A DNA stretch of 64,000 nucleotides, from IMG/VR virus record IMGVR_UViG_3300011115_000650; one strand, 5' to 3'. This DNA comes from a virus. Both the position numbers and the translations under genes were made by a program. The notes under the pieces are model-generated. The model was not told where the DNA came from and made no database searches. It saw only the letters and a list, made by a program, of their open reading frames with translations. Positions 5,175 through 58,148 of this stretch are shown piece after piece; the first letter of the stretch is position 1; every line of letters starts with the position of its first letter.

Positions 5175-5229
5175 AGTATTTGTTTTTGATTGTACCTAAA
5201 TATAGGATATTGGATTCATACTACCAACT

Positions 5230-5832
5230 TTATTTACCTCTCATCTTGGCTACTGCCTCTGCTAGTTCATCGAAGTCCTCAAAGGTAACCACTTGGTCAT
5301 TTATCTTGATACCCTTCTCAGTCACCTCTGCTATATAATCATCGGAGATATGTACGTGAATTGGTTTAGGTCCTTTATGTACTAGTCGTACTGATTGGAG
5401 TGGATAGTAATAGTCATTACCCTTTCCATCTAATTGAACACCAGCATTATCTGGTACTTCAGTAACAACACACTCCTCACCTATAGCATTATCCATATCC
5501 TTAGACCACCTATTATCCCAACCTAACTCATAACTAGGTACCTTATGAGTAACCTTTACTATGTCACCTACTTCCAGTGTACTTCTTTCTACTAAGATAG
5601 CATGGATACTCTTCTCCTTCTCCTTTACCTCTTCTACCTTGATTAAGTCTGATGCTTCATAGCTATTAGCACCTCCATTACTCCAATCAACATAGTAAGG
5701 TAAACTACCATCCTCTCCTTCAATACGAGCTATCACACCTTCAACATCTTTTGGATTATACTTACTAATACCATAGTACTCTGACGACACACTAATCATT
5801 ACTTTATCACCTACTTTTAATTTCTTATTCAT
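5230..5832 (-). CDS. Protein with two SH3/KOW-like beta-barrel modules
   Basis: LKVGDKVMI and LEVGDIVKV repeats. Confidence 0.5.
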   Translation of the reverse strand: MNKKLKVGDKVMISVSSEYYGISKYNPKDVEGVIARIEGEDGSLPYYVDWSNGGANSYEASDLIKVEEVKEKEKSIHAILVERSTLEVGDIVKVTHKVPSYELGWDNRWSKDMDNAIGEECVVTEVPDNAGVQLDGKGNDYYYPLQSVRLVHKGPKPIHVHISDDYIAEVTEKGIKINDQVVTFEDFDELAEAVAKMRGK

Positions 5833-5894
5833 AATGTTTATTTTTAATTGATTTATCTAAAGATAAGAAGAAGGCCCCTAAGGGCCAACTTTAA

Positions 5895-6233
5895 TTATTG
5901 GCCTCCTAGGTAATCTGTTATAGAATTTTCAATAGCATCTCTAACCTTATCACATATACCTCCTAAATCTAAATCTACACTATCTAATTCTAATTTGTTA
6001 TCGTAGCTAATCTCAAATTGAGCACTACTTAAATCAACCACATCATCTGTACTAGCATCCTCTATAACACTACTTACTCTATCACTCACTACCTTGATTA
6101 ATAAATCAACCTGATCTTTATCTAATCCTTTCTCTTCCTCCTGGATACCTTTAATGATACTGATTACTTGTTCTTGACTGTAGAAGCTCGGTAATTGGCT
6201 TTCTAATAACTCGATTGTTTGTTGTTTGTTCAT
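5895..6233 (-). CDS. Acidic cassette protein
   Basis: D/E-rich; own promoter. Confidence 0.65.
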   Translation of the reverse strand: MNKQQTIELLESQLPSFYSQEQVISIIKGIQEEEKGLDKDQVDLLIKVVSDRVSSVIEDASTDDVVDLSSAQFEISYDNKLELDSVDLDLGGICDKVRDAIENSITDYLGGQ

Positions 6234-7750: not shown

Positions 7751-8245
7751 TTAAGCCTTCTTCCTCTTAGCGTCTCTTAATGCTTGCTTATGCGCTTCTG
7801 ATAACGGTTTACCTTTCTTAGATAGACTACATTTCTTTCTTATCTCTTCAGTCCTTTCGTAAGGCACCTTACCCTCCATCCACTTTTCAACAACCTCCCT
7901 AGGTATCTTTCTACCTGTCAAGGTCTTAGATATCTTAGCTTTAGTCTCTTCGCTTAACCTACCCGCCCTAAAATGCAAAGGAGTATACCTTAAATTCAAC
8001 CCCTCATCTAATACCTTAAAATGCTCCTGCCAAAACCTCTCCCTCTCATTAAGCTCTTCTAGAGAACATTCCTCTAAAACTTCGAACGTGTGACTATCTA
8101 CTGCGTACTTAAGAAAAGATGCATGTAACTTAGGCTGTCCCTTGCACCCACACTTTTTATAATGACGCCACCTTCCTTGTATATCTGTACTCTGACCGAT
8201 ATAGACCCTACCCTTAGGGTTCATAATTTTGTATATTCCTATCAT
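7751..8245 (-). CDS. GIY-YIG homing endonuclease with NUMOD3-like repeats
   Basis: IGIYKI...VYIGQS...RW..Y, LNERE, SEETKAKIS, SEAHKQ. Confidence 0.85.
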   Translation of the reverse strand: MIGIYKIMNPKGRVYIGQSTDIQGRWRHYKKCGCKGQPKLHASFLKYAVDSHTFEVLEECSLEELNERERFWQEHFKVLDEGLNLRYTPLHFRAGRLSEETKAKISKTLTGRKIPREVVEKWMEGKVPYERTEEIRKKCSLSKKGKPLSEAHKQALRDAKRKKA

Positions 8246-44038: not shown

Positions 44039-44065
44039 AGTAAGTCTATTTACAATAAATAGTAC

Positions 44066-44094
44066 AAAAAAAGGTAACCATTACTGATTACCTT
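44066..44094 (-). terminator. Intrinsic terminator closing the RNA-gene transcript
   Basis: AGGTAATCA-GTAA-TGGTTACCT followed by a T run. Confidence 0.75.
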
Positions 44095-44116: not shown

Positions 44117-44734
44117 CTACTTTACTTTTTTACCTCTTACCCATCCTTCAGGTACTGGATCATCTTTTGTTATCTTTCTAACCTCTACTCCATTTGTGAT
44201 GTATCTTACACCGTACTGAGAGTTTAACACTCCTTTCTGTTTTAAAGCGTTTGCTAATCCGATTTTCTTTTTCGTCTCTTCTCTATGCTTCCTACCTATC
44301 CAGTTTGGTACTGTAGGTTTACGAGTTCCACTTTCGTAAAGCTTTTTATTTCTTTCACTACATATTTTGGAAAACTTTTCTTTGAAGACCGGGTCTTTTA
44401 GTTTCTCTTTAAACCCTCGAGTAGCAGCTAAGTGTGCTCCACCTACACCTCCTGTTTTTAAATTCATACAGTTGAGATCTTTCATTAGATCGTCATTAAC
44501 AAGTTCTTTCTCTCTCTCAGCTAACTCCTCACGAGTGCTATAATACTCTAAAATTTCACATTTAAAATTAGATTTACCGTGCTTTCTAATAGCTCTTCTT
44601 AATCTTGTACCACTTCCAAGATAACCATCTTTTAAATTTGAAGTAGAATGCATTCCTACATAATACTCTCCGTTTAAAAGATTGGTTGTCTTGTAGATGA
44701 AGTGATGTTTTTTACTTTCATTGATGTTTGCCAT
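44117..44734 (-). CDS. GIY-YIG (Seg-like) homing endonuclease
   Basis: FIYKTTN..NG.YYVGMH...DGYLGSG, CMNLKTGG.GG, NUMOD3-like HREETKKKI; start MANINE follows a late-type motif. Confidence 0.85.
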   Translation of the reverse strand: MANINESKKHHFIYKTTNLLNGEYYVGMHSTSNLKDGYLGSGTRLRRAIRKHGKSNFKCEILEYYSTREELAEREKELVNDDLMKDLNCMNLKTGGVGGAHLAATRGFKEKLKDPVFKEKFSKICSERNKKLYESGTRKPTVPNWIGRKHREETKKKIGLANALKQKGVLNSQYGVRYITNGVEVRKITKDDPVPEGWVRGKKVK

Positions 44735-44743
44735 ATCTATCTT

Positions 44744-44758
44744 TATAATAAATAGTAC
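44744..44758 (-). promoter_or_regulatory. Representative late-type promoter motif (C/A)TATTTAT(T/A)
   Basis: Recurs shortly upstream of starts at ~775, 8350, 22192, 23377, 26716, 40400, 44056, 44750, 56961, 60217, 63198 and 63956. Confidence 0.6.
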
Positions 44759-44779
44759 AAAAGTCAAAAAAGTGCCCGA

Positions 44780-55600: not shown

Positions 55601-55996
55601 TTTAGGAGTATTTGTCCAAAAAGTAAAACACTCTTCATCAAATCCAATTGACTTCATATCAAGACTTGGTTGATACGGCACAAATTCTTTAGTCATAACC
55701 TTATTTATTTTATTATACAATAAAGATAAGGACTTTATTTTGACCAAACAACTTTATTTTAACCAAAATTTCCACCATGGTTTTGAAGGAGTTACCTTAG
55801 GCTTACCCACTAACGTGATGTGGTTGTAGAGAGAGTTTATAGTCTTATAAACTGTGTAGTGTTGGGTTGGAGGTATTTTAGAGATGTTGACCTGTATATG
55901 GACAGGAACGTGTAGTATTTCTCCATTCTCCATTATCTGAAGTTCAGTATCTACGATGAGATACTCTTTGTTTAGATGTTTTGTATTTCGAATCAC
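52684..55996 (-). CDS. Run of ~12 small hypothetical genes, including a predicted lipoprotein (54205-54426)
   Basis: Abutting or overlapping ORFs; 54205 has a signal peptide plus IIGC; an extra 59-aa ORF lies at 55108-55287. Confidence 0.6.
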
Positions 55997-56058: not shown

Positions 56059-56094
56059 CTAATTGGAAAGTGGTGCTTTAATTGTTGGGTGTGA
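56059..56094 (-). pseudogene. Stranded duplicate of the thyA 3' end
   Basis: Encodes SHPTIKAPLSN* versus ThyA SHPAIKIPLSN*. Confidence 0.8.
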
Positions 56095-56104
56095 TTAAAA
56101 TACA

Positions 56105-56929
56105 CTAATCTACAAACATCCAATTGTATTTATTTGAGTTGCATCTGTAGTTAACTAATCCTCTCGTAATACCAAAAGCTTTTGCTGCTTCCTGACCTGT
56201 TTGATAGAGAACACCATCAGCTTTTACTTTCTTGCTATTTGAAGGCTTGATTGTTCTAGCATTAGCGTACTCTCTAAGCTTCTGTTTAGTTTCTTCCGTA
56301 TGGGTCTTTCCGTAAAATGGATTGTTAGCTCCTGACCTATCTCTACATTTACCGCAAGCTTTAGACGTCGGATCTATTCTTGCTCCACAATCACAAAAGG
56401 TACGTCCTCCTTTCCAATTTGGATTATTATCACCTTCATAACTTCGACGATTATTCGTACACCTCTCGATCAACTCGGTTGGCTTTTGCTTGCCTTTCCA
56501 GTACCCTTCCTTTCCATACATTCCATTATTCTGTCCTCTAACCTTAGTAGACCTCTCCTCTCGCTCTTCTGCTGATAGAGAATCCCAATACTGCTTTGCT
56601 GTTATTGATTTCTTTTCAAGGTACTCCGGATCGGTGTAGTTGATAAAACTAGAGGTATCACCACCGGTTCCTCCTTCAGTTAGGTTGTATCCGTTTTCGA
56701 TAGCGTTCTTTTCTTTAATCCAGTAAACCTCTCTACTGTTAAGATCTTCCTTATCTATACACTCTTCTAAGATACACTTTGTAAAATTCTCTAGCCCATA
56801 CTTCTGTATAGCTGCTTTGATTAGCTTGCCACTACCAAAATACGAATCGAAGTTAGATCCGCTATACTGTCCAATGTACATTTTTCCATTGAGATTATTT
56901 TTAATCTCGTAGACTATAAATCTTTTCAT
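56105..56929 (-). CDS. GIY-YIG homing endonuclease with NUMOD3
   Basis: IVYEIKN..NGKMYIGQ, YFGSG, GYNLTEGG.GG, NPFYGKTHTEETKQKL. Confidence 0.85.
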   Translation of the reverse strand: MKRFIVYEIKNNLNGKMYIGQYSGSNFDSYFGSGKLIKAAIQKYGLENFTKCILEECIDKEDLNSREVYWIKEKNAIENGYNLTEGGTGGDTSSFINYTDPEYLEKKSITAKQYWDSLSAEEREERSTKVRGQNNGMYGKEGYWKGKQKPTELIERCTNNRRSYEGDNNPNWKGGRTFCDCGARIDPTSKACGKCRDRSGANNPFYGKTHTEETKQKLREYANARTIKPSNSKKVKADGVLYQTGQEAAKAFGITRGLVNYRCNSNKYNWMFVD

Positions 56930-56984
56930 ATTGATACTGTGTTAGGTTTACCCTTTAATATAAATATCAGAAAAGTAGAAAAAG

Positions 56985-58148
56985 CTAATTAGAAAGTGGA
57001 ATTTTTATAGCTGGGTGGCTTTGATATCCTTCGATAATAAAATCACCAATCTCATAATGTGCGATGTCATCAACTTTACTATTTAGTATTTTTAACTTCG
57101 GTAATGGGTATGGCTCCCTACTAATCTGTTCCTTAACACCATCAATTTGATTTAGGTAGATGTGACAATCTCCCATATTCGCAATTAATTCATCAGGAAC
57201 CATATTAACTTCTTTGGCTATGATTTCTAAAAGTAGAGCATAACTTGCGATGTTGAATGGGGTACCCAACGGAACATCTTGACTTCTAGTATTATACATT
57301 AAAGAGATTGCTCTGGTTGGGATATTCCATTTATTCATTAACTCAATTATGATGTCATCTTCATTTCTACTATGTCCATAATCTAATAATGATTCATATT
57401 TAAGAACATCAATAGCGTAATCCTTTCTTTCATTTAAACTCAACTCTCTTGTATAAACTTGAAATCCATAATGACAAGGTGGAAGTACCATTGAATCCAA
57501 TTCTCCAACATTCCAAGCATTAACCATTAATCGTCTTGAGTCTGGATTTGTTTTAAGGTCGTTGATTAGGTTTGCGATTTGGTCAACTGCACTCGTTTCT
57601 ACTACAATACTATCATCTGACATATTGTACATTTCCTCAAATTTTCTACGTCTAACATTAGTTGTTTCCCATCTTCTCCATTGATGTCCATAAATTTTTC
57701 CGAGTGACCCCCATTTATTAGCAAACTCATCATCTGTTTTGATTTTGTTGATAAATTCTTCTTCTGATAATATCTCACCATTTTCATTAAATGGTGTTGG
57801 TTTTATTTTTTTACCACCATCTATTTTTAAATAAAAATCATATACTTCTTTATTTTGATTAATTTTTTCAAAAAACGATTTATATGCGTCACCTGTCCAG
57901 ATATTACATTCATTATCAACTAAGTACTTAATATTAGTATCTCCACGTAAGAACCAAAGAAGCTCAGTTACCATAGTTTTAAAAGCTATCTTCTTGGTAG
58001 TTAGGAGTGGAAATCCTTCGGACATTTTATGTCTTATCTGTCTTCCAAATACTGATATAGTACCCGTTCCTGTTCTATCTTGTTTAGTTACCCCATTGTC
58101 TAAAATGTCTTGGAGTAGGTCTGTGTATTGTTTATCTATTGTATTCAT
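56985..58148 (-). CDS. thyA: Thymidylate synthase with large insertions
   Basis: DRTGTGT, FPLLTTKK, ELLWFLRG, DSRR, LPPCH, RSQD...PFNIASY, GDCHIY. Confidence 0.95.
   Translation of the reverse strand: MNTIDKQYTDLLQDILDNGVTKQDRTGTGTISVFGRQIRHKMSEGFPLLTTKKIAFKTMVTELLWFLRGDTNIKYLVDNECNIWTGDAYKSFFEKINQNKEVYDFYLKIDGGKKIKPTPFNENGEILSEEEFINKIKTDDEFANKWGSLGKIYGHQWRRWETTNVRRRKFEEMYNMSDDSIVVETSAVDQIANLINDLKTNPDSRRLMVNAWNVGELDSMVLPPCHYGFQVYTRELSLNERKDYAIDVLKYESLLDYGHSRNEDDIIIELMNKWNIPTRAISLMYNTRSQDVPLGTPFNIASYALLLEIIAKEVNMVPDELIANMGDCHIYLNQIDGVKEQISREPYPLPKLKILNSKVDDIAHYEIGDFIIEGYQSHPAIKIPLSN

Follow-up and report, generated by a model that had tools for sequence, protein, structure and literature searches.

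A free-standing I-TevI relative behind an intron-less phage thyA, and a stranded second thyA end: a probable case of homing-driven 3' replacement

I-TevI is the textbook intron endonuclease, and it is still argued whether enzymes of this kind came to reside in introns through invasion by an endonuclease gene or through collaborative homing. The present analysis concerns an intron-free relative of I-TevI found in a stretch of 64,000 nucleotides (nt) of DNA from a freshwater phage, IMG/VR record IMGVR_UViG_3300011115_000650, referred to here as the window. An uninterrupted thymidylate synthase gene, thyA, is followed in the window by a separate GIY-YIG endonuclease gene and then by a short second copy of the thyA 3' end. 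This arrangement probably arose by homing, in which an endonuclease-bearing donor replaced the 3' part of the resident thyA and left the resident end stranded.

On comparison with published systems, the closest known parallels are the fungal mitochondrial mORF gene hybrids for the geometry and the intronless homing of phage T4 for the logic of mobility. In the gene hybrids (Allomyces macrogynus atp6; Glomus atp6, atp9, cox2 and nad3) a foreign C-terminus is followed by an endonuclease open reading frame (ORF) and then by the stranded native C-terminus, and the native piece matches the gene of an endonuclease-free relative (PMC3630166). The geometry in the window is identical. Unlike the hybrids, however, it is found in a phage rather than an organelle, the stranded piece is only 36 nt long, the endonuclease ORF has a start of its own behind a 55-nt spacer and does not continue the frame of the host gene, and the enzyme is of the I-TevI family with a presumed target well upstream of the junction. 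In three relatives, L018, L008 and L076 (relatives are given by locus number), the endonuclease ORF is fused to the stranded end instead of to the host gene. The Seg and Mob enzymes of T4 (SegF, SegG, MobE) are encoded between genes, beside a conserved target gene which they cut at a distance, their flanks are co-converted, and their genes are present in some relatives and absent in others (PMC2988022). The window gene appears to be like them in all these respects, but the right flank is not conserved among its relatives and a duplicated target-gene end is left behind. A literature search found no such scar described for T4, and no report of an endonuclease-linked duplicated gene end in a phage was found in the literature.

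The coordinates of the locus are collected in Table 1. The window thyA ends with ...GYQSHPAIKIPLSN (SHPAIKIPLSN and stop), in the codons AGC CAC CCA GCT ATA AAA ATT CCA CTT TCT AAT TAG. The second copy, hereafter the remnant, reads TCA CAC CCA ACA ATT AAA GCA CCA CTT TCC AAT TAG and encodes SHPTIKAPLSN and a stop. The two termini are identical at 26 of 36 nt and at 9 of 11 residues, and the codon differences AGC/TCA, ATA/ATT and TCT/TCC, pointed out earlier in a reading of the sequence alone, are correct. The endonuclease ORF starts 55 nt past the thyA stop and the remnant lies 10 nt past the endonuclease stop, behind an in-frame TAA. A degenerate IK.P..N-stop pattern matched only the working terminus and the remnant in the 64 kb window, where 0.00 matches were expected, and a position-specific score made from 74 ThyA C-termini gave the remnant 42.9 against 13.6 for the top of 39,959 control positions. 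The terminal duplication, which that sequence-only reading had also reported, is not a matter of chance. An Rfam scan of the window returned tRNAs and one tmRNA only and thus no group I intron at thyA, which is one continuous ORF with its own stop. Nor was an intron found at this locus in the 82 relatives examined.

No close cultured relative was found, a megablast search against cultured phages matching nothing but a 93% patch of thyA in the immuto phages of Flavobacterium. The exact junction pattern gave no matches in viral contigs and no relatives of d1, the gene downstream of the remnant, were found there. A metagenome scan with d1 recovered two close relatives, L084 (Ga0114963_10000139) and L085 (Ga0114958_10024116). 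The flanks of L084 are 97% identical to those of the window, and it has no endonuclease gene: a consensus-type thyA ending ...HHPAIKAPLSN and stop is directly followed by d1. From CAATTAAAG to the stop codon and for more than 70 nt beyond, L084 is identical, bar one base, to the window remnant and its flank. The last 26 nt of the L084 thyA are the last 26 nt of the remnant, the unusual codons CCA CTT TCC ... TAG included. The downstream copy is the stranded original end of thyA, as had been proposed together with the prediction that an endonuclease-free thyA would match it. Further comparisons give a like picture: L063 corresponds to L073, and L075/L034 to L028/L077, the first of each lacking the endonuclease gene that the second has at the same place.

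For a wider comparison the best 80 of more than 600 thyA loci in IMG/VR were used, of which 58 were counted as distinct. A GIY-YIG gene of one of several endonuclease lineages begins 9–64 nt after the thyA stop in 21 of the 58. All 21 have a non-consensus thyA terminus, IK(M/L/I/F/Y)PLSN or KIYFPLSN, usually in the codons ATA AAA ATG CCA CTT TCT. The consensus terminus IKAPLSN (ATT AAA GCA CCT TTA TCA) is present in 20 loci, none of which has a GIY-YIG gene (0/20). Another 17 loci have an altered terminus and no endonuclease gene, so that the endonuclease is present in 21/38 recoded alleles. Fisher's test for terminus type against endonuclease presence gave 9e-6, a value to be read with the relatedness of the loci in mind as the events are not independent. 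Stranded thyA termini were found in 13 loci, and 11 of the 12 remnants tested classify with the consensus termini of endonuclease-free loci, unlike the working termini found beside endonuclease genes. The remnants begin anywhere between 7 and 15 codons ahead of the stop, which speaks against a single fixed crossover point such as that of an integron-like system.

The 274-residue endonuclease gave Pfam matches to GIY-YIG, SegE_GIY-YIG, I-TevI_ZnF, NUMOD3 and I-TevI_DNA-bd, with the first two above their cut-offs. Residues 165–273 align along all of their length (E 3.5e-25) with the I-TevI DNA-binding domain 1I3J, a structure solved on DNA. The N-terminal part can be aligned with the catalytic domain of I-TevI, and the equivalents of its catalytic Glu and Asn are invariant in the alignment. 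Compared over full length, the closest genes in cultured phages are those for I-TevI carried by the td introns of T4-like phages, with 33–37% identity. Given this kinship and the lack of an intron at thyA, the enzyme is a free-standing I-TevI homologue. It shares with I-TevI of the T4 td group I intron (PDB 1I3J, 1LN0, 1MK0) the domain order of GIY-YIG, linker, Zn finger, NUMOD3 helix and helix-turn-helix, the tie to thymidylate synthase and, probably, a target in the same codons (QRS.D.FLG/LPFN, the slash marking the td insertion position here and below) with CAACG at the same spacing. It differs in that its gene lies outside any intron, 55 nt past the stop of an uninterrupted thyA, in that its catalytic domain is a SegE-like variant with overall identity of about 33–37%, and in that the presumed cut lies ~330 nt from the endonuclease gene, against within 25 nt of the insertion for I-TevI. 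The tail of the protein, ...FDNYKYKD, was considered as a decayed thyA remnant and rejected, since it aligns with the stretch in which the DNA-binding domain of I-TevI truly ends.

Cleavage by I-TevI falls 23/25 nt upstream of the intron insertion site and requires CXXXG (PMC2988022). The T4-type td exon junction, taken from the sequence record, is CAACGATCAGTAGATGTTTTCTTGGGT/CTTCCATTTAAT. All 19 distinct consensus-type alleles (19/19), and L084, encode NQRSVDTFLG/LPFNIASY at the equivalent place, and nearly all consensus-type alleles carry ATCAACGTTCAGT...TTAGGT/TTACCATTCAAC, with the CAACG motif spaced as in the T4-type td. L084 itself retains ATCAACG...TTAGGT/TTACCATTCAAC, as in the T4-type td exon junction, with CAACG 22 nt upstream of GGT/TTACC. 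Every altered-terminus allele is recoded across this stretch. In the window, where the position matching the T4 td intron insertion is between 57263 and 57264, it reads YNTRSQDVPLG/TPFN and shares 41 of 72 nt with L084. The recoding includes the synonymous changes Arg CGT to AGA and Ser TCA to AGY, by which CAACG is lost and the catalytic Arg kept, and the otherwise invariant site motif is diverse among recoded alleles (VPLGTP, FPLGIP(F/M/A), VGLGLS, TGLGLG).

The sequence-only reading had supposed that the recoded terminus confers resistance to cleavage. In that case the cut would fall in the last ~36 nt of a canonical thyA, and immunity would be determined by the terminus, which is very improbable. 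The split between the two types is perfect, with ATA AAA (ATG/TTA/ATT/TTT) CCA CTT TCT in bearers against ATT AAA GCA CCT TTA TCA, synonymous changes included, and an ACC(N)TTTA core is common to the terminus and the binding half of the td site. However, canonical remnants remain intact 10 nt from the endonuclease gene in the window and in 10 other genomes, which argues against the terminus alone being a target. Most canonical termini also lack a CNNNG 23–25 nt upstream of the putative binding core, and a much better I-TevI-type site is present 279 nt upstream of the thyA stop, and it is that one which is recoded. The target is thus probably the td-type homing site equivalent to 57231–57302 and not the terminus, and the recoded internal site is more likely than the terminus to be the determinant of resistance. 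A free-standing endonuclease aimed at the intron site of other genomes has a precedent in collaborative homing (F-CphI and the psbA intron site of cyanophages; mobE/I-TevIII; PMC3984707), but here there is no intron at the locus in the window or the 82 relatives examined, and the target is assigned by comparison.

The unit which moves is larger than the duplicated end. When terminus type was mapped onto a tree of ThyA's 5' two-thirds, 16 changes were required, scattered as in shuffles, and there was no linkage to residues 1–268. A tree of the 3' part, built without the diagnostic columns, required only 5 changes and 0/500 shuffles were as low. Nearest-neighbour analysis placed the terminus-linked block at residues ~270–345. 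The window and L004 are 64–69% identical in the 5' part of thyA and 98% identical from RAISLMYN onward, just upstream of the homing site, and the window 3' module is 93–98% identical in nucleotides to L004/L003. An abrupt breakpoint is visible between L075 (recoded) and L072 (canonical), which match at ~100% over ~230 nt until the two separate, no more than 5 nt from CAACG. Because of the 3' linkage, the jump of identity in L004, the breakpoint at CAACG and the ~80% identity of the window thyA to that of L084, the exchanged unit comprises the endonuclease gene and at least the 3' third of thyA. The earlier suggestion that only the terminus was replaced therefore does not hold, as the endonuclease-linked block starts near residue 279. 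In all 21 distinct bearer loci (21/21) the target gene differs at the putative site, and the 3' block is co-inherited while the 5' part is unlinked.

The proposed course of events is as follows. The ancestor would have had a canonical, L084-like thyA, ending ...IKAPLSN directly before d1 and with an intact site (NQRSVDTFLG/LPFN, CAACG). During a mixed infection an I-TevI-family endonuclease of another phage would cut this thyA at the internal site, and repair would copy the donor thyA from the break onward together with the endonuclease gene behind it, the donor 3' sequence being an immune allele recoded at both the homing site and the terminus. The genes downstream of thyA differ at almost every locus, and because of this hypervariability no long right-hand homology would be available, so that the right junction would form by short-homology or illegitimate joining within the last ~26–38 nt of the resident thyA. 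The piece of resident thyA would thereby be stranded in front of d1. The resident thyA would remain uninterrupted because the cassette supplies its own complete 3' end, and neither an intron nor an intein is needed.

Other loci preserve further forms of the junction. The endonuclease ORF reads into the stranded thyA end (...KKYENYQSHPPIKAPLSN and stop) in L018 (positions 5208–5963), L008 (5121–5903) and L076 (5121–5903), the join being an (E/D)NY codon triplet common to the endonuclease tail and thyA, that is, a microhomology. In L013 (5071–5349) and L014 the first ~20 nt, or half, of the endonuclease spacer is joined at ACCTTT to the tail of a thyA terminus, followed by a small ORF and then by a second, full remnant. 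As they retain part of the spacer, these two loci are deletion derivatives of an endonuclease-bearing locus, which shows loss of the endonuclease gene and serial insertions. A different order is seen in L004 (5098–5260), where a degenerate terminus copy comes right after the thyA stop, followed by a promoter-like motif and a truncated GIY-YIG-like frame; the remnant is there upstream of the endonuclease gene and not downstream.

It might further be imagined, though it is rather unlikely, that the stranded end serves as a right-hand homology arm, so that it completes, with the endonuclease gene and the immune 3' module, a self-contained homing cassette. Were this so, the cassette could enter any canonical thyA whatever the downstream gene, much as a mobile intron does but with no need of splicing. 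Recoding of the working terminus would then prevent the cassette from recombining out between the copies, and a thyA under such nuclease pressure would escape by giving way to thyX altogether, as in L085.

Several observations weigh against homing-driven 3' replacement as the full account. The window thyA is ~80% identical to that of L084 across all of the 950 nt visible, as against 97% in the flanks, and hence more than one exchange may separate the two. Since the loci are related and the recoded haplotype could stem from few origins, the association between recoding and endonuclease is not built from independent events. The catalytic domain is a SegE-like variant with no residue opposite I-TevI Arg27 in the alignment, the cut site is placed by homology, and the operator-like copy of the site found upstream of other cassette types is absent from the window spacer. 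A cut 279 nt away does not account for the perfect split between Ala and a bulky residue at the terminus, which suggests compensation within the protein, a lowering of homology to the remnant, or another specificity of a nuclease. Finally, scars are present at loci which lack an endonuclease gene in cis. In L085 the slot of mini-thyA, thyA and endonuclease, between the same left neighbour and d1, is occupied by thyX (positions 1204–1878; Pfam Thy1, E 4e-32), behind which the final 21 nt of the thyA terminus are still present. The locus is a non-orthologous replacement bearing the scar of the old gene. In immuto 2-6A and 3-5A, L057 and L009, copies of the terminus flank small non-nuclease ORFs.

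For the recoded terminus only, it was considered whether the change from Ala to a bulky hydrophobic residue compensates in the protein for Phe to Pro/Gly at the homing site, or lowers homology to the remnant, and so has nothing to do with avoiding the nuclease. In 57 of 57 unique sequences Phe293 to Pro/Gly is accompanied by Ala383 to Met/Leu/Ile/Phe/Tyr, even though linkage is looser in the stretch between these residues, which would probably correspond to F171 and A260 in E. coli ThyA. The terminal change is also a size swap, and all of this would fit compensation; deletion of the endonuclease through short repeats, which lowered homology would hinder, did occur in L013/L014. The synonymous changes at Ile, Leu and Ser, however, are not explained by protein compensation, and this explanation of the terminus is possible but somewhat doubtful.

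The presence of scars without an endonuclease makes the scar a general product of recombination at the thyA junction. The expectation in the sequence-only reading that endonuclease-free relatives would lack the duplication thus stands only in part: it fails around thyX in L085 and around the small ORFs of the immuto phages, L057 and L009. In L009 (5113–6776) three cargo genes lie behind thyA, a 178-residue ORF, a metallophosphoesterase and an 89-residue ORF, each ending at or before a terminus copy, and the family of the 89-residue ORF (MKKSELQQIIREE...) recurs behind thyA in L057 and L069. This raises the alternative that the last ~20–40 nt of thyA are simply a short-homology linker for swapping modules, with the endonuclease as passive cargo, much as short junction copies bound swappable modules in the short-linker cassettes (PeSL) of T4-type phages. 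The 21 nt of thyA left behind thyX, and the terminus copies around unrelated small ORFs (three serial copies in L009, and a further case in L013), are as this alternative would have it, and the thyA terminus likewise bounds thyX and small ORFs. It gives no explanation, however, for recoding exactly at the I-TevI-type site in every endonuclease-bearing allele, for canonical alleles never bearing an endonuclease gene, or for the breakpoint at CAACG, and L013/L014, which keep part of the endonuclease spacer, are deletion derivatives. Unlike in the PeSL cassettes, what is repeated here is where the coding sequence of an essential gene ends, and the cargo includes a class of nuclease whose recoded target lies alongside. 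Purely passive cargo is unlikely, although it and homing overlap to the extent that breaks made by the endonuclease may feed junction recombination.

Homing-driven replacement remains the probable account. In this clade, relatives of I-TevI that lie outside introns adjoin one and the same target gene, and the site is preserved in many natural states: empty (L084), filled with a stranded end (the window), fused to the remnant (L018, L008/L076), with a deletion scar (L013/L014), as an immune allele without the gene (L075) and replaced by thyX (L085). These states bear on how a nuclease may invade an essential gene without splicing, on how nuclease breaks shape mosaic phage genes, and on escape of the target through synonymous Arg/Ser recoding and changes in an active-site motif. 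In annotation, a short 'orphan' gene end beside a GIY-YIG gene should be read as an invasion scar.

Table 1. Positions of the features at the window thyA locus (a slash marks the position of td intron insertion)
Feature	Positions	Strand	Basis
thyA, intron-less, 387 residues, endonuclease-associated ('X') haplotype	56985-58148	-	ORF; Pfam Thymidylat_synt E 2e-97
Working thyA terminus, recoded (Ile for consensus Ala)	56985-57020	-	canonical-versus-endonuclease-associated log-odds -29.6
thyA 3' module (residue ~279 to stop), travels with the endonuclease-associated state	56985-57314	-	identity and linkage data
Putative equivalent of the I-TevI td homing site, recoded LMYNTRSQDVPLG/TPFNIASY, CAACG absent	57231-57302	-	
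Spacer with promoter-like GATATTTATATTAAAG (56953-56968), upstream of endonuclease start	56930-56984	-	
GIY-YIG gene, free-standing, I-TevI family, 274 residues	56105-56929	-	Pfam; 1I3J alignment
Junction, 10 nt, endonuclease stop to remnant; final TAA closes the remnant frame	56095-56104	-	
Stranded original thyA terminus SHPTIKAPLSN and stop, canonical type	56059-56094	-	canonical log-odds +10.2
Downstream gene d1, 80 residues, conserved right flank	55754-55996	-	96% amino acid and 97% nt identity in L084/L085

The promoter-like motif GATATTTATATTAAAG of the spacer is common to the spacers of most endonuclease cassettes among the relatives. In the window it has one exact match and three matches at up to 2 mismatches, and as it is so rare there a role as a general phage promoter was rejected. 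A hairpin sequestering the ribosome-binding site (RBS) was not found in the window spacer, the fold being not significant (z -0.79), while an L055-type spacer (z -2.6) and a T4-type I-TevI leader (z -3.2) do form hairpins. These related cassette types, unlike that of the window, resemble I-TevI in what precedes the gene, namely a hairpin which sequesters the RBS and a copy of the site that looks like an operator. One half of the canonical homing site (TTTTTAGGACTACCCTTTAAC) is copied in the spacers before several endonuclease lineages (L055, 3951–4015; L018, 5146–5210; L015, 1947–2009), where it pairs with the RBS region, with a promoter-like GATATTTATATTAAA in the loop. These spacers closely resemble the stretch upstream of I-TevI in the T4-type td intron (TAGGACTGCCCTTTAATAAATA; L083, 1140–1190), which is regarded in the literature as an operator and late promoter.

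Nuclease-like genes were also seen on the other side of thyA. In L046 (364–1212) a GIY-YIG gene with a weak AP2-domain match below the Pfam cut-off lies immediately upstream of thyA, L047 and L049 also have a nuclease-like gene there, and in L069 (3285–4004), a canonical allele, an ORF with a weak NUMOD3 match has the same position. Thus thyA can be flanked on both sides. The window thyA is itself a mosaic: the region around the active-site Cys (57440–57763, minus strand) is 93–98% identical to the immuto phages, L010 and L006, and the neighbouring segments are 50–80% identical.

The same geometry had been proposed for the tmRNA of the window, where a GIY-YIG gene (44117–44767, minus strand) lies behind the tmRNA gene and is bracketed by a 21-nt direct repeat at 44049–44069 and 44742–44762. 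A duplication of the tmRNA end in the manner of tRNA islands was rejected, as the 3' end of the tmRNA occurs only once, and the proposal falls with it: the repeat is a promoter/leader sequence (TTTTGTACTATTTATT.TAAA). A third GIY-YIG-like ORF is present in the window at 7751–8245 (minus strand), with a match to an L015-type endonuclease at E 8e-14.

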